Source of the DNA: a bacterium
GTDB taxonomy: Bacteria > Sumerlaeota > Sumerlaeia > SLMS01 > JAHLLQ01
Length of the DNA: 64,000 nucleotides
Assembly (NCBI GenBank): GCA_020444065.1
Contig: JAHLLQ010000004.1
Location: 198,662-262,661 of the forward strand
Reading direction: 5' to 3'
Numbering within the stretch: the stretch's first letter is position 1; each line of letters starts with the position of its first letter. Below the pieces are notes generated by a model, which made no database searches, had not been told where the DNA came from, and saw only the letters and a list, made by a program, of their open reading frames with translations. Positions 4,198-42,639 of this stretch are shown here, piece after piece. Made by a program: the position numbers and the translations under genes.

Positions 4198-4374
4198 ATC
4201 GAAGCGGCGCAATCCATCCCGCGACTATGACTCTTCTCCAAAAATCGGTCCAAAAATGCTAAATCTCAATTTCCGAATTGTTGGAAATATCGGTCAAAAT
4301 ATGGCCAAAATGGGCATGTTTTGACCAAATAAAGCGCTCAAAGTAGGTTCACCAAATATTAACACAAAATATCG

Positions 4375-13719: not shown

Positions 13720-14320
13720 TCTCGAAGAGAAGGTCGATTGAACTCACAGTTGCACGGACGATCCCAGAGCTCAAGTCCTCACTGCACAGGATGTCCAGGA
13801 ATCGGATCATAGAAAGGCATGGTAGGGTCCATTCGGAGCAAAACGGCGTCGTTTGGACCGGTCAATCTTTAACAGCCGTGAAAACCGGCGGGCAAAGTGA
13901 GAGCGGAAATTCGAAGAGAAGTGATTTTCCATGCCAAGCGCCTTCGTTTTATCAAAATCCTGCGACGCGGCTTCTTGTCTTACTCAGTTTGAGCGCACCA
14001 AGACTTCATCGTGAAAGATTGATATAATTGGATTTGTGCTGTTTATTTACCGCTTGAGAAACCGCGGGCGAGCAAGCCCTTAACCAGAGGCCTGGGCACC
14101 CGGTTTTTATAAAACGTTTCATTGTATTTTTCCAAATTTTCGGAATTCGAAAGATTAATCGCGTTGCACGTTCGCACCGTTTTTGATTGAAGTGGTCCAA
14201 CGTCAATAAAGGCTTTGCCTGTCGGGGGGAAGCCCAAGTGACGAAATCCAAATTGTCCGAAAAGTCGAGCGTCGCACCGCACCGCATCGCCGGCTCAGAA
14301 GGGCAGAAGGGAAAGTCACC

Positions 14321-23520: not shown

Positions 23521-24975
23521 TCAGTTCCCCTGCCCGCGCTGAATCTGCTTGGTCAGGTACCCCACGATGCTCGCCATGTTGGCGTCCGCATCCACGGCCT
23601 TCTTGATCTTGCGGAACGCATAGATCACTGACGTGTGGTCCTTGCCGCCGAATTTCGCCGCGATGTCGGGGAAGCTCAGGTCCGTCAACTCGCGGCACAA
23701 GTACAACGCCAAGTGACGTGGTTGACTGAATTTCTTGGACCTATTGCTGCCCAGCAGCTCTTGCGGCGTAATCTCGAAGTAATCGCACACGCAGCGCTGC
23801 ACGTCCTCGATACTGACCCGGCTCTGGGGCTGGCCGACCATCAGGTGTCCCAACACCTCGCGGGCGGATTCCAGGTTGATCGGACAGTCGTGCAGTCCCG
23901 CGTAGACCTTGATGCGTTTCAGGGTACCCTCCAGCTCACGAATGTTCGACTTCACGCGCTCGGCGATGAACTGCAGCACGTCGCTCGGGATCCGCAGGCC
24001 TTCCTGGCGCGCTTTCTGCCGCAGAATTGCGATTCGGGTTTCGAGGTCCGGCGGCTGGATATCCGCAATCACGCCCCACTCGAAGCGCGACCGCAGCCGC
24101 TCCTCGAGCGTCGCCAGGTCACGCGGGGGGCGATCGCTGGAAAGCACGATCTTCTTCCCGTCGTCGAACAGCGTGTTGAACGTGTGGAACATCTCGTCCT
24201 GCGTGCGTTCCTTTCCCATCAGAAACTGCACGTCATCCAGCAGCAGAACGTCCACATTCCGGTATTGATTACGGAACTCCACCTTGCGGTTCATCTGGAT
24301 GCTCTCGATGAAGCTATTGATGAACTGCTCGGAGCTCGCATACATCACGCGCACCGTGCGGTCGGCCTCGTACAACGCGTGACCGATGGCCTGCATCAGG
24401 TGCGTCTTGCCCAGACCCGACTGTCCGTAGATGAACAGAGGGTTGAAGGCCTGGGAGTTAGAGTCTGCCACGGATTGGGCCGCTGCGTGCGCGTAGCGAT
24501 TGCTTTCGCCCACGACGAAATCTTCAAACCGATACCGGGGATTGATCCGTGGCGGATCCACGACCCGCGGGCTGGGTGCCGAATGCTGGAAGCCTCGGCG
24601 GCCGCCCATCTGGCGGAAATCCACAACGCTGCGGCGGTGAGACATCCCACCGTCGAATGGCGTCTGCTCTTCCGTGGAAGAGGACTCTTCAGTGCTATCT
24701 GTTTTCTCGCGGACGATCAGATCGACGTCCACATTGCGGCCTGCAGCCTCGCTCATGACCGAGCGCAACTGCCGGCCGTATTTTCGTTCAATCCAGTTCT
24801 GGTAAAACTCGCTTGTGACGGACAAGGTCACCCGCTGTGACTCTTCGCAAATTCCATCAAAAGTTATGGGCAATAACCACGCATTATACTCAGCTTCTCC
24901 CACATTTTCGCGCAAGATATCACGAACCCTGTCCCATACATCGGGCGTGATGCGGGTCATGAAAGAGTGTTCCAT
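23521..24975 (-). CDS. dnaA: chromosomal replication initiator protein DnaA
   Basis: Track ORF 484 aa; AAA+ Walker A GQSGLGKTHL; Walker B LLLDDVQF; C-terminal DnaA signature ...KDHTSVIYAFRKI. Confidence 0.95.
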   Translation of the reverse strand: MEHSFMTRITPDVWDRVRDILRENVGEAEYNAWLLPITFDGICEESQRVTLSVTSEFYQNWIERKYGRQLRSVMSEAAGRNVDVDLIVREKTDSTEESSSTEEQTPFDGGMSHRRSVVDFRQMGGRRGFQHSAPSPRVVDPPRINPRYRFEDFVVGESNRYAHAAAQSVADSNSQAFNPLFIYGQSGLGKTHLMQAIGHALYEADRTVRVMYASSEQFINSFIESIQMNRKVEFRNQYRNVDVLLLDDVQFLMGKERTQDEMFHTFNTLFDDGKKIVLSSDRPPRDLATLEERLRSRFEWGVIADIQPPDLETRIAILRQKARQEGLRIPSDVLQFIAERVKSNIRELEGTLKRIKVYAGLHDCPINLESAREVLGHLMVGQPQSRVSIEDVQRCVCDYFEITPQELLGSNRSKKFSQPRHLALYLCRELTDLSFPDIAAKFGGKDHTSVIYAFRKIKKAVDADANMASIVGYLTKQIQRGQGN

Positions 24976-31211: not shown

Positions 31212-34200
31212 ATGGCAACCTTCGCGAATCACCGAAGTCTGGCGTTCAGTTCCCTCATCCTGCTGCTTACTCTCTGTGCCGGGACGGCTTTGGCCGCAAA
31301 GATCCCCGCCAAGGGCATCGAATCCCTGCCCCACGAATACCTGTTCGAGCAGGCCGATAGCCTTCGGTCATTTTCAGATCGGATTGAACTCCAGGGATCC
31401 ATCAACTCTGACGAGTTGCACCTGCTGCGCCGTGCATGGGTGGTTGCCGCTCCTCCGGGAGAGATCGAATACGAGATTCGCAGCCTTACCATCAAAGATC
31501 ACATCACGGGCGTTCCGGTGGAACTGACTTCCGCCGAGGGCATTGACGAGGTCCGGGAGAGCTACGGATTCAGAACTGGTTTCATCGTGGAAGAAATGGG
31601 CATCATGCGAAATGTCCGACTGCTCCGCGTGGTCGTGAACGGCGATGCCCAGATTCTCTACAACAAGCGCAGCTTCTCGCTTCGTCAGTTCGACATCGTC
31701 ATCAAGTTCCCAGAATGGAGCCCAGAGGATGTCTCCAACGGCTCCTTCTCAAGTGAACAAAGCAGCTTGCGCCAGATGCTCGAACAATCGGTCGCGAACC
31801 CCGAGATGCTGGACCTCTACGCGCAGGCAGACCCGCCTGAGACCGAGACAAGCCTGCACGCAAAGTCCGCTTGGCAGCCGCGTCCCGAACTGACAGCGGA
31901 GGACTTCCCTTGGCTGAAGATTCCGATCACCGAGGACGGCTTGTACGCGATCGACGGGCGCTGGCTGTCGGGTCAGGGGCTGGATCCCTCGACGATTGAT
32001 CCGGCATCGCTCTTCCTCGTGAACCGCGGCGAAGAAGTCGCCCTGGTGCAAGCCGGCCCTGAGGGGGCATCGTTCGCCACCGGCGCCCGTCTAATTTTCC
32101 TCGGGCTGAAGAATCACTCCAAAGAAACAAACGAGCGCATCTACTTTCTTGGTCGTCGAGAGACGCCCCAGGAACGTCCCGCTCTCGCCACTGCTGAAGA
32201 TCTCGATGAAGATGCAGAAGTCGAACGCACCTACCGCCGGAAGACGCGCATCGAGGAGGACGTGAACCTCGAAACGCGCGTTGGCAGCTTCCTGAGTATT
32301 CGCGAGATGACATGGGTATGGGATGAATTGCCGCGCGACACGCCGGAGAGTTTCACCTTCGATCTGCAGACCCTTCCATCGTCGGCACCCGCAGCCAAGG
32401 GATCGATCAAGGTCTACTACGCGGGCGTTGGCCTGACCGGCGTTGTGACCCTCGCGGTGAAACTCAATGGCAAGGAACTGGTGCCCGGTGCGACCCTAAC
32501 AAGTCGCCGCAACGTGGTGGATTTCGATATCCCCGAAGGCCTCCTGCAGGTGAACGACAACGTGTTCGAACTCACCATGAAGCAGCCTACGGGCTCGGGC
32601 AATCGCCAGATTCCGCCCATCTATCTCGATTACATCGAACTCGAGCATCAGAGTCTCTTCCGCGCGCACGATGGCCAGCACCTCGCGGACTTCGGCAGCG
32701 AGAAGAGTATCTCCGGCAACGTTCGGCTCGGCGCCGTTGGCTTCCGTCCCTATCGGATGCTGGCAGTGGACGTGACGAAGCCTGAGCAGCCGCTCCGACT
32801 TCCCGTCGTTGAAGGCGAAGGCATCATTTACGTCCTGGCCGATGTCACGCCCGAAACTCGGATTCTCATGATGGAAGACGACGTCGTTCCACGTGCCCCA
32901 GCCGGCGAGCCACTGCATTGGCAGGATTGGCGCGCGCAGGATTCAAGCGCTCAAGTCGTGGTCATCTATCATCCGGATTTCGAAGAGTCCGCACATCGGC
33001 TCGCCGCAGACATCGAGTCCTCCGGACGCGATGTCGTCCTCGCCGATGTAGAAAGCATCTATGAAGCCTACACGGACGGTGAACTGAGTGTCGATGCGAT
33101 CCAGATGTTCCTGCGCGATGCTATCTATCGTTGGGATGGTGAGCGTCCGACTCACGCAATCCTCGTTGGCGATTGCACGAGCGATGGGCAACGCGTTTCG
33201 CGCAACGACGTGATCAACTACGTGCCGACGCATGTGATCGAGGAAGCAGAGACGCATGCGATCGATGAGTACGCGACCGACCAGTACTACGCTTGGCTGG
33301 CCGGCGACGATGAAGTCGCCGATATCATCGTTGGTCGTATCTCCGTGAACAACATCACCGACGCCGACACCGTGGTGGATAAGTCCATCGAGTATCGCCG
33401 GCAAGACCCGTCAATTTGGGCCAGCCGCTTTGTTACGGTCTCCGACCCGGCCGAGTTCGAAAGCGTCTCCTCGATGCTGGTTCACACGTCTGTCGACCCG
33501 TGGTTTGACTACACGGCAATCAATACAGCGGATTATCCCTGGGAGGATAACTTCTACCTGCCGCGGAACTACATCCAGGGCGACGAGATCAAAGTCGCTC
33601 CGGTTGTGACGACGAAGTTGCAGGAAGAAATCGACAGCGGACTCGGCGTCATTTCCTTCTTCGGTCACGGTTCGCCGAATATTTGGTCGAATCAGCGCAT
33701 CTGGTTCGGCGGCGACAGCGAGAACAGCGATAACCTTCGCCTGCGCAACCGCGACCGGCTGGCGTTCATGACGTCGTTCACCTGCAATAATGGTGCGATC
33801 GACTATCCCGTACCGCGTTGGAATGTCTGCATCGCGGAAGACATGATGCGTGTTCCAAAGGGGGGAATGGTGGCGTGCTTCGTACCGTCCGGTCCTGGGT
33901 ACTCCGAGCGCCACTTGCGTCTGGCTGAAGGCTTCTTCCGCACCCTGACGCATTTGAAGGTTCGTGAGTTTGGCCAGGTCGCCGAGATGTCGCGACTCAC
34001 CTATCAGGCCATGCTTGGCTCCGATGATCACGCGCGCATGTTCATCTTCCTCGGCGATCCCACGCTGAAGTTCCCAGCGATCGAGCGCGATGCGGAACTT
34101 TCGATTCGCCCCGACGTCTTGTCGGCGGCCGTTGATCGTCAGCCTATTCGTGCGGCGATGACCACCGAGGAAGAAGAACTGACAACGGGGACGATGATCC

Positions 34201-37015: not shown

Positions 37016-37336
37016 TCATTCCACGTCGTCATCGCTCTGGTCGCTCGAGGCGACATCGATGCTCTTGATTTCCTTGCCCGGTTTGAAAGTCACCACGCGG
37101 TGCGAGGGAATCGGGTAGGATTTCTTATTCTTTGGATTCCGGCCCATCCGCGCCTTGCGCTGCTTGACCTGGAAGACTCCGAAGTCTCGGATTTCCAGTC
37201 GCTCATCGCGGATAATCACTTCTTTCACCGACTCGATGATCTGGTCGACGATAATGAGGGCCTCCTTGTCCTTGATCTGTTGTTGATCGTTGGACAGGCC
37301 GTCCGAGATTCGTTTGACGATATCGGCTTTGATCAT
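37016..37336 (-). CDS. HU/IHF family nucleoid-associated DNA-binding protein with acidic C-terminal tail
   Basis: Track ORF 106 aa; IHF/HU arm pattern ...GVFQVKQRKARMGRNPKNKKSYPIPSHRVVTFKPGKEIK. Confidence 0.85.
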   Translation of the reverse strand: MIKADIVKRISDGLSNDQQQIKDKEALIIVDQIIESVKEVIIRDERLEIRDFGVFQVKQRKARMGRNPKNKKSYPIPSHRVVTFKPGKEIKSIDVASSDQSDDDVE

Positions 37337-38612: not shown

Positions 38613-39593
38613 TTACTCCATCAGGCGGCGTTCTGCAACGCGACGCGTCAGGAATTGGAGGAAGGAGCATCCAATCGCGAACTTGATCAGGATCAGCGGC
38701 GGGAAGATCAGCAGGAACGTCCACGGGAGCAGTGCCGATCCGAGGAAGGCACCGGAGATTCCGATCAGGAAACCGAGTACCAGGCAAACGCCAAGGCCGT
38801 GCGTGGCGGCCTCGGCAAAGCTGTCCGATGTGAACGCGAACGATATGGCGATCGATCCCGTCGCGAAGATCGTCGCCGCCATGTGGACGGGAAAGAGGAA
38901 GCACAATGGGAGAATCAAATAGGGACTGAGTACCTCGCTGGATCCCAGGATGGAAGCTCCGATACCGATTGCCAGCAGCGCCGGGCAAAGGGCCGCCGCG
39001 ATGTATGCAATCGGCAATGTGGCACCGACCAGCATCCCCCATGCAATCTCCTCGGGGCGCAGCGGAGTGACGGCCAACTCATCGAGCATCGATCGGCTTT
39101 CCGAATAACGGATCGTCCCGGCAGCAGTGAAGAACCCCAGCAGATTGCAGCCGAGATGAATCAGCGCGAAGAGGGCGTAGTAGATGCCCGCGAACAGGGG
39201 TTCCTGACCGGACTCGGCCAACATCGACTGGATCTGGAGAAAGATCGGTGTCGCAATCGTGGCGAGCAGAATCGGAATCAACAGCAAGAGGTACCAGGGT
39301 AACAGAGAGAAGAGGAAAAGCTTCCGGCGCGTTCGCAACCACTCGCGGCGGAACATCGCATTGCTGCTCGGCGATGCCAGGAAGCCAAAGAAGAACGTGA
39401 AGAATGCAGCCGAGAAGAATCGAGGGACTCCCAATTGCGAGTCATCCAACACGACCACCGGACGTGATTGTTGATAGACTCCCTGGCGAGGCTGCTCCAC
39501 GCGGGGACGGACGTAGTCCTCCTCGTCGCCGGGCATTGGAATGCGCGGATCGTTGCGCCAGGGAGGGATATCGCCTTGCTTCTGGCCAGTCAT
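38613..39593 (-). CDS. hypothetical polytopic membrane protein
   Basis: Track ORF 326 aa; hydrophilic N-terminus then about 6 hydrophobic helices; no family recognised. Confidence 0.6.
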   Translation of the reverse strand: MTGQKQGDIPPWRNDPRIPMPGDEEDYVRPRVEQPRQGVYQQSRPVVVLDDSQLGVPRFFSAAFFTFFFGFLASPSSNAMFRREWLRTRRKLFLFSLLPWYLLLLIPILLATIATPIFLQIQSMLAESGQEPLFAGIYYALFALIHLGCNLLGFFTAAGTIRYSESRSMLDELAVTPLRPEEIAWGMLVGATLPIAYIAAALCPALLAIGIGASILGSSEVLSPYLILPLCFLFPVHMAATIFATGSIAISFAFTSDSFAEAATHGLGVCLVLGFLIGISGAFLGSALLPWTFLLIFPPLILIKFAIGCSFLQFLTRRVAERRLME

Positions 39594-39614
39594 GGCTCAC
39601 TTCCGCTGGATTCG

Positions 39615-39628
39615 TTGCACCGGTGCAA
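39615..39628. promoter_or_regulatory. perfect 14-bp palindrome TTGCACCGGTGCAA, candidate operator
   Basis: Read directly; 22 nt upstream of the minus-strand membrane-protein start (39593) and 270 nt upstream of the divergent LacI-HTH gene. Confidence 0.45.
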
Positions 39629-39897
39629 TGATGTGGAGCGATCTGAGCCCGGTCTAGCGAAACAATCGTGGAATCAGTGGTTCACTTTGTCCATTCAGGC
39701 TATTTTTGACGCTCCAATTTGGTCCGATTCTCACATGGGTCTCTGCGCAGTGTCAGACCGCGGTGTGCATAAACAGCTTTATTGTTAGGATACGGTTCAA
39801 GATAGTGGCAAAGCCCTTTTATGGCACGCCCTTCTCTAAGGCAAGGCGTGGGTAGTAACACAACACCAAGTTGTTCCTTCAGAGGAGAATACACAAA

Positions 39898-40155
39898 ATG
39901 TCGAATCTCAATAATGACGGTGGTTTGACCATTCGCGACATCGCCCGCATCACCGGGTACAGCCGCTCGACGGTCTCACTCGCCATTAACGATAGCGATA
40001 AGATCAACGATGAAACCAAGACGCTGATCATGGATACCATCAAGCGCGTGGGCTACGTGCCGAATCCGGCCGCCCGTGCACTCGGCGCCCGCAGCCGCCA
40101 GGTTGTTGCCGCTCGCAAGAGCCGCGGCGATTCCATGGGACGCATTCAAGTCTGA
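39898..40155 (+). CDS. stand-alone LacI-type HTH DNA-binding protein (85 aa, no ligand-binding domain)
   Basis: ATG 39898 behind RBS AGAGGAGAA; LTIRDIARITGYSRSTVSLAINDSDKINDETKTLIMDTIKRVGYVPNPAARAL matches the LacI/PurR HTH pattern; ORF stops 25 residues later and is followed by a strong terminator. Confidence 0.6.
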   Translation: MSNLNNDGGLTIRDIARITGYSRSTVSLAINDSDKINDETKTLIMDTIKRVGYVPNPAARALGARSRQVVAARKSRGDSMGRIQV

Positions 40156-40175
40156 CAGTTCTCCTGAAAGAGCCT

Positions 40176-40220
40176 GCGCCCGGTCTTCGCGTCAGGCGAA
40201 GACCGGGCGCCCTCTATTTC
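40176..40220 (+). terminator. rho-independent terminator downstream of the LacI-HTH gene
   Basis: 15-bp perfect stem GCGCCCGGTCTTCGC / GCGAAGACCGGGCGC, loop GTCAG, then CCTCTATTTC. Confidence 0.7.
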
Positions 40221-40455
40221 GCTCTCTTCCCAAAACCAGGGACGCACACATTGGCAGATACAGAACCGAAGAAGTCGGCGCAGTCGTCGGCACAATTCGT
40301 CAAGCCTCGGCAAGCCCTTTCACGCTGGTGCTACAGGCGAATCTTACGCGGCGGCATGCGCAAGAACGGCACCGTTGGCATACGCCCAAACGGCAACCGC
40401 GGCTACAGACAATAACAATCAGAACCCCGGATGGAATGTCCGGCGGGGGTGAAAC

Positions 40456-41031
40456 TCACTGAGGCGCAGTCTTCAGTACGGCGAAGCACGTGTTCGTAAT
40501 CGTGCGCGCATAGGGACGCAGTTTGCCCTTCAGCCGACCGTAGCGATTGCCCACGGCGCTTTGCATCACCATGCCCAGCAGCAACTGCGTGGATAGCGCG
40601 ACGTTCTGCTCCGGAATCTCGCCGCGCTTGATCGCGCCGTCGATCACGCTCGTGATGACGTCGACCGGGTTCGCCATATCCTGGCGTACCGCGTCGAGCA
40701 ATTCGTGCTGCACCAGCAGGACGAATTGGAACCCCTTCGGATCCTCGTCGTACGCGGCATAGAAGCCGTCGATCATTGCGAAGAGCTTATCCTCGATCGC
40801 CCGGCCCTTCTGGTCGGCCGCCTTCATCAGGTCGGCGTATCCCTGGAAGTACTGGAAGAACAGGTAGCGGACAAGATCGTCCTTACTGGCGTGGTGGCGA
40901 TAGAGCGCCCCCTCGGTGACTTCGGCGCGTTCAGCGATCTGGCGAATGCTGGCGCCGTCGATGCCGCACTCGACGAAAAGCTCCAATGCGGCGCGTTCAA
41001 TGTCTTTCTTTTTCTTTGGCGGGCGAGCCAC
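40456..41031 (-). CDS. TetR/AcrR family transcriptional regulator
   Basis: Track ORF 191 aa; N-terminal HTH ...GASIRQIAERAEVTEGALYRHHASKDDL. Confidence 0.85.
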   Translation of the reverse strand: MARPPKKKKDIERAALELFVECGIDGASIRQIAERAEVTEGALYRHHASKDDLVRYLFFQYFQGYADLMKAADQKGRAIEDKLFAMIDGFYAAYDEDPKGFQFVLLVQHELLDAVRQDMANPVDVITSVIDGAIKRGEIPEQNVALSTQLLLGMVMQSAVGNRYGRLKGKLRPYARTITNTCFAVLKTAPQ

Positions 41032-41181
41032 GACGCGCTTCCTTCCCTTCGAAATGTAAGCAAACGTTGACCGGCTCCCCGAACCAAAGCAACTCCAAAT
41101 CGCTGCAGTTTCTCTTGTTGCCTCGCGGGGGGTCCCCCTGGACTATGCTGATAACCGAATATAGACAGGGAGGACGGCACG

Positions 41182-42639
41182 ATGTTCCCTCACCGCCGCC
41201 TGTTGCTCGCGCTGCTCTGTTTGCCGGCGTTGACGACCTGCACACACGCCCAGGTTTTGCTCAACGGTTCCCACAAATTCGTTACCTCGGATGAGAACGA
41301 GATGTTCATCGACCCCCGTCGAGCGGTTGATCGATCCGATTGTGGACAGATCGCCTTCGTTTCTTACGAGGCCCTGCAATACACCTTCCATCGCCTGCTA
41401 CTCTACGAAACCTTCGAAGGCGGTGGGGCAGGCGAGGTGACCGAACTGCCGAGAGGTTTCAACACCGAAGCCGACGCTGCCTATGATTCCGACTGCAGGC
41501 TGTTCGTCTATCTCGCCAGCGGATCCCAGACGGAGACCCGTATCCGCCAGGATGACGGCGCTTTCCTTACTTTCGAGAGGAATCTAGCCATCCCCGACTT
41601 CACGGGTGCCGCCTACAATCTGTTGGACTTTTTTCGCGGAGAAGACGGCAATCTGCACGCGGTGCACTTCGCCTATCGGTTTGTTCGAGACGGACGGGCC
41701 TCTGAGAAGCGCCTGATTTGGGGCACCTGGCGCAACGGAGCTTGGGAGGACCGCGTTATCAGTGACTACAGCGGCACGATCTTCGGCCCGCTGGACGCGG
41801 CTGTGAATGCATATGGGCATCTCTATGTGCTGGCCGATCCGCCGAGTTCCCACAGCTACTCCGAGGATCTGTTCTTCAATGTGTACTCGCCGGAGTTGTC
41901 GACATCGGAGAACGTTCGGCCCGCGCCGGGGATGGATTTCCATCCGTTGGAGGCAAGCCTTGCCCTCGGTCCCAATGGCGAGATCTCCATCGCTGGAACA
42001 TTCATGCAGACCGTCGAGACCGGATCGCCCACTTACATCAACCTTCGTTACTTACGGCGCACCGGGGACAATCAGTGGAACGAGACGTCCATCGCGACAA
42101 GCGACGACGACTATCACGGCAGCGACGGCAGCAATTACACGGGCCGCCGGCCACTGCTTGAGTATGACGAAAGCGGAGGTTTGCATCTCGCCTTCAGCGA
42201 TCATTCGAACTGGCATAATCCCTACAGCGAATCCGAGATTGGCCAGGTGCGTTACGGTTATCTTCCGCCAGGGGGAACTGCCTGGACGCTGACAACGGTC
42301 TTCCGTCAGCCTGGGCGCTCTGCCAGTCCAGACCCGTTGCACGGCTTTCGCCTTGGCGGACTCGCGCCTTCTCCCAGCGGCCGCCGCGCAAACATCTTCG
42401 GCGCCGAGCGAATCGTCGTGTACAACAACGACCCCTTCGCTGCGCCCGACATCGTGACCATGAATGGTCTGCAATTCGATGTTCAGAACACTCAGGCTGC
42501 CTCCGTTGCTGCGCCCAATTACGCCGTGCTGAACTGGCTGCTCGGCCGGCCGTTCGCTGGGGGTGCCCCAGCGGATGGAAACGGCGACGGTGCACTTGGC
42601 TCTGCGGATTTGATCGGAACGATCGCACTGGAGCCCTAG
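41182..42639 (+). CDS. secreted hypothetical protein with C-terminal dockerin/EF-hand-like Ca-binding motif
   Basis: Track ORF 485 aa; signal peptide MFPHRRLLLALLCLPALTTCTHA; C-terminal ADGNGDGALGSADLIGTIA motif; divergent from the TetR gene. Confidence 0.6.
   Translation: MFPHRRLLLALLCLPALTTCTHAQVLLNGSHKFVTSDENEMFIDPRRAVDRSDCGQIAFVSYEALQYTFHRLLLYETFEGGGAGEVTELPRGFNTEADAAYDSDCRLFVYLASGSQTETRIRQDDGAFLTFERNLAIPDFTGAAYNLLDFFRGEDGNLHAVHFAYRFVRDGRASEKRLIWGTWRNGAWEDRVISDYSGTIFGPLDAAVNAYGHLYVLADPPSSHSYSEDLFFNVYSPELSTSENVRPAPGMDFHPLEASLALGPNGEISIAGTFMQTVETGSPTYINLRYLRRTGDNQWNETSIATSDDDYHGSDGSNYTGRRPLLEYDESGGLHLAFSDHSNWHNPYSESEIGQVRYGYLPPGGTAWTLTTVFRQPGRSASPDPLHGFRLGGLAPSPSGRRANIFGAERIVVYNNDPFAAPDIVTMNGLQFDVQNTQAASVAAPNYAVLNWLLGRPFAGGAPADGNGDGALGSADLIGTIALEP

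Follow-up and report, generated by a model that had tools for sequence, protein, structure and literature searches.

Within a 64,000-nt stretch of DNA from a bacterium of the candidate phylum Sumerlaeota (contig JAHLLQ010000004.1, positions 198,662 to 262,661; hereafter the window, in whose numbering coordinates are given unless a locus is named), a gene of 85 codons encodes the helix-turn-helix (HTH) and hinge of a LacI-type regulator and very little else. We refer to its product as mini-LacI. The initial annotation, made from the sequence alone, had proposed that this open reading frame (ORF) is either a minimal repressor-operator module, in which a LacI headpiece that cannot sense sugar acts on a nearby palindrome, or the remnant of a decayed regulator. 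By means of sequence searches, structure modeling, and comparison of orthologous loci (cited by L numbers), we find that mini-LacI belongs to a conserved family of headpiece-only proteins and that the spacer between its gene and the divergent neighboring gene carries conserved promoter-like and TGCA-core elements. The locus is composed of the following features:

38613–39593, − strand: divergent gene for a 326-aa multi-pass membrane protein, candidate target, with the palindrome 22–35 nt upstream of its ATG
39614–39633, no strand assigned: footprinted block GTTGCACCGGTGCAATGATG, candidate operator, which holds the perfect palindrome TTGCACCGGTGCAA at 39615–39628
39822–39839, + strand: −24/−12-like element TGGCACGCCCTTCTCTAA, with GG at 39823–39824, C at 39836, and a predicted transcription start site near 39848
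39882–39887, + strand: ribosome-binding site (RBS) GAGGAG, read from the sequence, with the ATG 10 nt further on
39898–40155, + strand: mini-LacI gene (85 aa, ATG start), encoding an HTH at residues 11–56, a hinge helix with Ala59 and Leu62, a conserved basic helix to R73, and a variable tail
40176–40220, + strand: intrinsic-terminator-like hairpin (40176–40210) and pyrimidine-rich tail
40456–41031, − strand: convergent gene for a TetR-family regulator (Pfam TetR_N, E = 2.6e-14)

A Conserved Family of LacI Headpieces without a Core

The 85-aa protein matches the Pfam model of the LacI HTH (PF00356) at residues 11–56 (E = 1.3e-12; 47.7 bits against a cut-off of 27; full model, 1–46), and no second Pfam domain was found in it beyond this match, in agreement with the initial annotation on both the LacI/PurR-type HTH at 39898–40155 and the missing effector domain. 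LacI/GalR proteins are defined by two domains (PMC4052901); mini-LacI ends at residue 85 and does not have the effector/dimerization core that is represented by PF00532, PF13377, or PF13407. The frames downstream had been described as free of any LacI core, and a tblastn search with 43 full-length LacI proteins likewise recovered no core remnant in any frame of 39501–41100, only noise outside the HTH across the whole window, and no core in any Sumerlaeota locus. The 300-bp gap before the next gene would, moreover, be too short for a core of ~270 aa.

Sequence matches in the PDB comprise 47 LacI-family chains, in which residues 9–73 of the query correspond to the HTH and hinge of CcpA, PurR, LacI, and others. 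An AlphaFold2 (AF2) model built with the family alignment has a predicted local distance difference test score (pLDDT) of 78 and helices at residues 12–19, 23–30, 38–51, and 57–77, and its best Foldseek matches are the DNA-bound headpieces of CcpA, PurR, and LacI, with a root mean square deviation of ~1.5 Å over 55 residues. In the hinge, VPNPAARALG, residues A59, R60, and L62 are invariant and A61 is conserved in at least 90% of 31 sequences, and the segment aligns to the hinges of 7ff4 and 5ysz. In the LacI family, the hinge residues that enter the operator at its central CG are Ala at AA-51 and Leu at AA-54 in the numbering of Camas et al. (PMC2978694), and mini-LacI retains them as A59 and L62. 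At the recognition positions AA-15 and AA-16, mini-LacI has R23 and S24, and the TVSR motif of the family reads TVSL here, with Leu and not Arg at AA-20; in the LacI family as a whole, a G at position −6 of the operator is correlated with Arg at AA-20 (PMC2978694). Conservation extends 10 residues beyond the hinge, to R73, in the stretch GARSRQVVAARR/K, which by alignment matches the linker and first core strand of full-length proteins. In the AF2 model, the residues past the hinge are predicted, with modest confidence, to continue the hinge helix (helix 57–77 at ~pLDDT 70).

The Lac headpiece HP56/HP62 (PDB 1LCC, 1CJG, and 1L1M) has the same composition, that is, a three-helix HTH and a hinge helix with no effector/dimerization core, and the mini-LacI model superposes on it at 1.3–1.7 Å over 55–57 residues at an identity of ~27%. 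HP62, however, is obtained by proteolysis or engineering and binds its operator strongly only with a V52C disulfide (PMC5866929). Mini-LacI, in contrast, is the product of a natural gene that is conserved throughout a phylum; 10 residues precede its HTH, and residues 63–73 add a conserved basic helix. PurR and CcpA are 34–39% identical to mini-LacI over HTH and hinge, and the hinge Ala and Leu are kept. Unlike these two proteins, mini-LacI has no periplasmic-binding-protein-like core and, therefore, neither a corepressor or inducer nor a core-mediated dimer; its recognition residues are R,S...L and not T,T...H or M,A...R, most of its candidate sites (described later) are without a central CG, and no metabolic genes adjoin it.

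A word-indexed search of 5.8 billion proteins identified 45 homologs, all 80–96 aa long and 75–100% identical, that carry a generic "LacI family" annotation in databases; all homologs with a taxon label are from Candidatus Sumerlaeota except one that is labeled Poribacteria. In a survey of one genome per GTDB species, the gene was found in 16 Sumerlaeota genomes with one copy per locus, and every copy is an intact ORF of 81–92 aa with an ATG and a GGAG-type RBS. Orthologs are also present on many metagenome contigs, and the locus of the window was recovered as identical copies in two sequencing runs. Residues 9–73 are almost invariant, and variation is confined to the last 8–20 residues. Synonymous sites are near saturation (median proportion of synonymous differences, pS, 0.61), and the corresponding nonsynonymous value (pN) is 0.14, which gives a ratio of nonsynonymous to synonymous substitution rates (dN/dS) of ~0.12. 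Residues 1–75 are 82–97% identical between genome pairs in which GuaA is 71%, RuvC 55%, and the membrane protein 33% identical. In an exhaustive hidden Markov model search of 1.84 billion cluster representatives, the family proved to be isolated: Its members make up a single 50%-identity cluster that scores 164 bits, after which come one relative of 186 aa (110 bits) and, with no more than 86 bits, generic LacI HTHs. In NCBIfam, there is no model specific to the family, the only matches being to full-length LacI models and all far below their cut-offs, and we found no paper in the literature that describes natural headpiece-only LacI regulators.

We regard it as practically certain that mini-LacI represents a genuine, functional family of headpiece-only LacI proteins, and the proposal of a LacI headpiece unable to sense sugar is strongly supported by the orthologs, the dN/dS ratio, and the lack of any core remnant. 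As judged from the sequences collected, the family appears to be specific to the candidate phylum Sumerlaeota and to be among the slowest-evolving proteins of that phylum. Its closest outgroup, the 186-aa relative (P0046; L032 4001–4561), shares the recognition helix with mini-LacI (FSRSTVSLAIND) and has a 24-residue N-terminal extension and a C-terminal domain of ~90 aa without a Pfam or NCBIfam match; the P0046 gene is divergent from scpA-scpB on a 1.06-Mb contig.

Expression Signals and Conserved Upstream Elements

The mini-LacI gene has the appearance of a monocistronic unit composed of a −24/−12-type promoter element, an RBS, the 85-codon ORF, and an intrinsic terminator. The RBS had been called a good one, and GAGGAG at 39882–39887 bears this out: A GGAG-type RBS is found at the equivalent place in all 16 orthologous loci, and the 14-nt RBS block (TCCTTCAGAGGAGA) is identical between the window and its closest relative, L028. 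Of the terminator assigned to the gene in the initial annotation, the 15-bp stem is confirmed. The hairpin (12 G-C pairs, 5-nt loop) starts 20 nt past the stop codon and folds with −39.5 kcal/mol (z = −5.6), but the T-tract (CCTCTATTTC) is weak, so that the G+C-rich hairpin and U-tract expected of an intrinsic terminator after a stop codon are both present in the window, the latter in weak form. The hairpin is kept in L028 with a better T-tract (tail TTCTTTTTC), and hairpins lie 3′ of the stop codon in most orthologs. AT-richer DNA had been described on both sides of the gene; this holds for the upstream spacer (49% GC) but not for the downstream 300 bp, which at 59% GC are close to the 61% of the window. 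An Rfam scan of 39400–40600 gave one sub-threshold chance match only. Neither L010 nor L028, in which the gap measures ~100 bp, has the ~200 bp that separate the terminator from the TetR gene in the window (40260–40455); this segment yielded no conserved ORF, Rfam match, or LacI remnant and looks like a lineage-specific spacer or inserted DNA.

An element of the form GGCA(C/T)(G/A)-N4-T(T/C)(T/C)C(T/C) precedes the ATG by 48–98 nt (mostly 50–54) in all 17 loci compared, a position that would give a 25–30-nt leader at most of them, and in the window its 18-nt block (TGGCACGCCCTTCTCTAA) is identical to that of L028. As in sigma54 promoters (TGGCACG-N4-TTGCW), the GG-to-C spacing is 12, that is, GGCAC and a C twelve bases downstream match the −24/−12 spacing, and inverted repeats are found at a fixed upstream distance; in contrast to sigma54 promoters, the G at −13 is absent from 17 of 17 mini-LacI sites, where T or C takes its place. 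The canonical TGGCAC-N5-TTGC was not found in 184 kb of Sumerlaeota DNA, neither rpoN nor genes for enhancer-binding activators were found in the 64-kb window or the 20 loci, and a literature search for sigma54 in Sumerlaeota returned nothing specific. From the promoter sequence we infer that the mini-LacI gene may be transcribed with sigma54. The only other strong match to the −24/−12 matrix in the window, at 41173–41194 on the + strand (GACGGCACGATGTTCCCTCACC; score 18.1 vs 19.9 for mini-LacI), overlaps the ATG (41182) of a secreted-looking 485-aa ORF that is divergent from the TetR gene; this match may be due to chance, or the start of the 485-aa ORF may be mis-called.

The perfect palindrome that had been reported at 39615–39628, next to the divergent membrane-protein gene, is confirmed in the sequence, with 21 nt between it and the ATG of that gene. 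Its frequency in the genome had been put forward as a check; in the window, this palindrome occurs once, with no other copy at two or fewer mismatches, but perfect 14-bp palindromes as such are not rare (5 observed vs ~7 expected from Markov shuffles), and count alone was rejected as a measure of its significance. Comparison with L028 gives a measure of a different kind. The two loci are 92% identical in mini-LacI, 87.5% in TetR, and 61–68% at third codon positions, and their intergenic DNA has an overall identity of 59%, which drops to 46% once four perfect blocks (GTTGCACCGGTGCAATGATG, ATAAACAGCTTTATTGTTAGGA, TGGCACGCCCTTCTCTAA, and TCCTTCAGAGGAGA) are set aside; the number of identity runs at least 20 nt long that is expected by chance is below 0.004. 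The block GTTGCACCGGTGCAATGATG, which holds the palindrome, is identical at 20 of 20 positions and lies at the same 21-nt distance from the start of the membrane-protein gene in L028. The perfect conservation of this block amid diverged flanks shows that it is a selected element and not a chance occurrence. Between the palindrome and the promoter-like element lie further features:

39648–39670, no strand assigned: partly conserved block CCCGGTCTAGCGAAACAATCGTG, identical at 20 of 23 positions in L028
39711–39725, no strand assigned: GCTCCAATTTGGTCC, an instance of SSTCCAAW, a motif enriched upstream of the gene family
39769–39790, + strand: conserved block ATAAACAGCTTTATTGTTAGGA with the inverted repeat ATAAA-N4-TTTAT, centered ~47 nt upstream of GG

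All 22 positions of ATAAACAGCTTTATTGTTAGGA are identical in L028, where the flanks have diverged, and L017 has a similar inverted repeat (GGCATAAACAGTTTTATGCC) at an equal distance from GG.

Comparison across loci revealed that the palindrome, TGCAC-CG-GTGCA, is the CG-centered N2 member of a class of inverted pentamers, YGCAM-Nn-KTGCR (n = 2, 3, 4, or 6), that is ~16-fold enriched upstream of the mini-LacI gene (3.0 vs 0.19 per kb elsewhere). Half-sites of the type TTGCRY/RYGCAA reach 10.9 per kb in the 260 nt upstream compared with 1.8 per kb elsewhere, and TTGCGCAA is present in 8 of 17 loci against 0.3 expected, seven times at −70 or −69 from GG. TGCA-core inverted pentamers are found upstream in 12 of 20 loci, and in seven loci an N4 site lies at −79 or −78. 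TGCA-core arrays are present in all ten "DSPKIN" loci and in none of the ten "DSDKIN" loci, which form the clade of the window. Related sites are TTGAgCCGGTGCAA in L015 and TTGAaCgGGTGCAA in L014, both beside the arrays of these loci, and TTGCAC-N6-GTGCAA in L004. A second TGCA-core cluster lies between ruvC and the next gene in L008 (4977–5027) and L013 (5044–5096), where TTGCAT-N4-TTGCAC and TTGCAC-N4-TTGCGCAA are followed by GCTCCAAG or GGTCCAAG, and hints at a regulon that extends beyond the mini-LacI gene. A cluster of half-sites at 33154–33200 lies inside a 1508-aa ORF and was taken as chance.

The motif SSTCCAAW (GGTCCAAA-like) is enriched 23-fold in the 300 nt upstream of the gene (3.67 vs 0.16 per kb elsewhere) and present there in 14 of 20 loci. 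Upstream of the gene for the 186-aa relative there are three copies of GCGCAA and two of GTCCAAA, and no GGCAC element. SSTCCAAW of the GGTCCAAA type also occurs in other intergenic DNA (4237–4254, 1087–1094, and 13852–13859 in the window; 3831–3852 in L032) and is ~5 times denser in intergenic than in coding DNA of the window; a tandem copy at 4237–4257 (TCCAAAAATCGGTCCAAAAAT) is like the tandem upstream of the 186-aa relative. A second regulator may act at this motif, or the motif may belong to the promoters of the phylum. Upstream of the TetR gene, two blocks at 41053–41073 and ~41090–41103 are conserved with L028, namely AATGTAAGCAAACGTTGACCG (half PurR-like GCAA-ACGT) and CAACTCCAAATCGC (SSTCCAAW-like), and possibly serve the TetR gene and its divergent neighbor as operators or promoter elements.

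Gene Neighborhood and the Binder of the TGCA-Core Sites

The 326-aa membrane protein matches no Pfam or NCBIfam family, even at E ≤ 5, and its orthologs are divergent beside the mini-LacI gene in L004, L011, and L028 as they are in the window. The convergent TetR gene is shared by the window, L010, L028, and L029/L030, a synteny that is limited to the clade of the window. Across loci, ruvC lies convergent downstream in 8 of 16 and guaA upstream in 5, and other neighbors include tsaD, nadA, ispD, mutS, and dnaG. All-against-all clustering of neighbors together with Pfam scans revealed no recurring operon partner, sugar gene, sensor, or activator; the neighbors are housekeeping genes, TetR, and the membrane protein, a setting that does not indicate local control of sugar or nucleoside catabolism. 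In the window, dnaA is encoded at 23521–24975 (− strand), 15 kb from the mini-LacI gene, and replication, repair, and segregation genes found as neighbors elsewhere (L001, L029, and L032 among others) include ruvC (8 loci), mutS with dnaG, and recA within 6 kb, with scpAB adjoining the gene of the distant 186-aa relative. These neighbors could reflect an origin-proximal position or a functional link. A gene for an HU/IHF-type protein with an acidic C-terminal tail (37016–37336, − strand; Bac_DNA_binding, E = 1e-23) lies 2.6 kb upstream, and the genome therefore has a conventional nucleoid-associated protein besides mini-LacI.

The interpretation that we favor, and that we hold to be a little better than an even bet, is that mini-LacI acts as an effector-less LacI headpiece on TGCA-core sites located close to its own gene and to the divergent gene for the membrane protein; for the narrower statement that mini-LacI itself binds the palindrome and the TGCA-core sites, we put the chances at even or slightly below. 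Under this interpretation, the conserved promoter of the mini-LacI gene would probably depend on an activator, and the activity of mini-LacI would be set by the amount made and not by a sugar; expression level is the most likely determinant because the protein has no ligand-binding or dimerization core. Two headpieces would assemble on inverted TGCA pentamers (YGCAM-N2-4-KTGCR) by means of the hinge and tail helices, with the paired hinge helices meeting over the central pyrimidine-purine step. In the lineage of the window, binding at 39615–39628 would block the leader or promoter region of the membrane-protein gene and so repress it, and might also feed back on the expression of the regulator itself. 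In the other clade, the sites lie ~95–100 nt upstream of the presumed start of the gene's own transcript, and binding there would more likely modulate activation than block polymerase. A sigma70 promoter predicted for the membrane-protein gene (39756–39727) has no conserved counterpart in L028 and was given no weight.

Several properties of the palindrome speak for this interpretation. In the LacI family, operators have the form of even palindromes, with CG at the center in 1173 of 1303, and three quarters of the regulators that act locally control their own expression (PMC4052901). Relative to a typical LacI operator, which we took to be an even palindrome of 16–22 bp with a central CG located 30–140 bp upstream of the regulated start codon, the palindrome is 14 bp long (16/18 if extended), CG-centered, and 22–35 bp upstream, and the sites of the other clade are without a central CG. 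The palindrome combines the CG center with A at −3, both features of LacI operators, its T (not G) at −6 matches the missing Arg at AA-20, and no other LacI-type gene is nearby. The minimal repressor-operator module that had been envisaged is, thus, plausible inasmuch as the palindrome is footprinted, has these operator features, and belongs to the ~16-fold enriched class, although it is restricted to one lineage and 8 of 20 loci are without a site.

The candidate sites also resemble those of known LacI-family regulators. The PurR box is ACGCAA-ACGT-TTGCGT (PDB 1PNR and 1QPZ), and the upstream YGCAA-N4-TTGCR sites share its geometry. In Escherichia coli, the operators of CytR are inverted or direct TGCAA/TTGCA pentamers or octamers of variable spacing (TGCAA-N2-3-TTGCA), and, bound upstream of promoters, CytR functions as an anti-activator (PMC3454398). 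Similarly, TGCA-core repeats with varied spacing (N2, N3, N4, and N6) are found upstream of the promoter-like element of mini-LacI, which reproduces the flexible spacing of CytR sites. However, CytR has a full cytidine-binding core and needs CRP, and its DNA-binding domain is only 30% identical to mini-LacI; its hinge, PQPMGRNV, is atypical whereas that of mini-LacI is canonical, and the recognition residues are T,A..R in CytR and R,S..L in mini-LacI, so that the helix is not CytR-like. The resemblance to CytR is in the DNA sites only.

Other observations weigh against mini-LacI as the binder. The exact palindrome is found only in the lineage of the window (the window, L026/L027, and L028), and 8 of 20 loci have no TGCA-type inverted repeat upstream; given that the DNA-reading residues are invariant and yet these eight loci are without a site, autoregulation through such sites is not universal. 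The −79 sites have no central CG, keep a fixed phase to the −24/−12-like element, and are equally typical of an enhancer for a sigma54 activator, and the sigma54-like element itself is without G at −13. The recognition residues R,S...L differ from T,T...H in PurR and T,A...R in CytR, and the likeness of the operators is an analogy only. Isolated Lac headpieces bind strongly only if artificially dimerized (PMC5866929), the putative dimerizing helix 57–77 is predicted at only ~pLDDT 70, and another factor could bind the palindrome. An extended form of the favored interpretation, in which mini-LacI would be a ligand-free autonomous LacI headpiece used throughout the phylum, reading flexible TGCA half-sites as dimers or oligomers held on DNA by hinge and tail and acting under sigma54-type enhancer-dependent control as an anti-activator or global regulator near replication and repair genes, and not as a sugar repressor, is speculative and in our view improbable.

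Among the alternatives, the strongest is that mini-LacI is real but that the palindrome and TGCA arrays are bound by another protein, such as a sigma54 enhancer-binding activator or TetR, with mini-LacI acting in trans as a global or nucleoid factor; we consider this unlikely, if still a serious contender. NtrC-type sites are TGCACC/GGTGCA-like inverted repeats, and the arrays are at a fixed distance to the −24/−12-like element, with TTGCGCAA at −70/−69 in seven loci. Such phasing matches the classic enhancer geometry of sites at a fixed distance upstream of a sigma54 promoter (PMC3162934), and ZraSR-type systems have been reported in metagenome-assembled genomes of Sumerlaeota (PMC10866078), but no activator gene was found in the 20 loci or the 64-kb window, and the site geometry and CG center suit LacI-family operators. 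TetR is syntenic within the clade of the window, but no palindrome or inverted repeat of this kind was found upstream of the TetR genes, which gives TetR no support without excluding it. The enrichment of SSTCCAAW as a second motif shows that more than one factor acts in the region. The extreme conservation, varying housekeeping context, and basic tail of mini-LacI would fit a global factor, although an HU-type nucleoid protein is already encoded 2.6 kb away.

It is also conceivable, but quite unlikely, that mini-LacI acts via partners, either as a dominant-negative "microprotein" that pairs on DNA with the hinge or headpiece of full-length LacI paralogs or as half of a split regulator in which the segment RSRQVVAARR docks onto a separate sensor domain. 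In the 7ff4 alignment, the 10 conserved residues from the end of the hinge to R73 correspond to the linker and the first β-strand of the LacI core, which would suit docking, but AF2 gives a helix and not a strand for RSRQVVAARR. Headpieces alone bind weakly unless dimerized (PMC5866929), and the outgroup P0046 has an extra C-terminal domain of ~90 aa after the same HTH; on the other hand, the tail is not conserved in P0046, no conserved partner gene was found in any neighborhood, and neither a LacI core nor a headless periplasmic-binding-protein-like gene was found in the window or the loci. Finally, the option that a full-length LacI gene decayed to leave this ORF and that the palindrome arose by chance can be dismissed as extremely improbable despite the shortness of the ORF, the generic annotation of its product, and the ~7 perfect 14-bp palindromes expected by chance per 64 kb, because intact orthologs of the same length in 16 species genomes, strong purifying selection (dN/dS ~0.12), and the downstream 300 bp, which hold no core remnant and have no room for one, exclude a pseudogene, and the RBS, promoter element, and terminator are conserved and the palindrome is footprinted in L028.

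Implications for the LacI Superfamily and Sumerlaeota

LacI/GalR is the textbook family of allosteric repressors, and its definition rests on an HTH joined to a core that both binds sugar and mediates dimerization. The mini-LacI family keeps the headpiece alone and keeps it under tighter constraint than GMP synthase across an uncultured phylum, which indicates that the headpiece can be a functional unit by itself. Its existence raises the questions of how such a protein dimerizes or attains useful affinity, how it is controlled without a ligand, and which targets it regulates. The loci described here also give a first look at the promoter and operator grammar of Sumerlaeota, in which a −24/−12-like element is accompanied by TGCA and GGTCCAAA motifs, and mini-LacI, as a compact natural DNA-binding module with candidate operators, may be of use in synthetic biology. 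If true, the ligand-free mode of action on sites of flexible spacing would give the LacI superfamily a new mode of operation.

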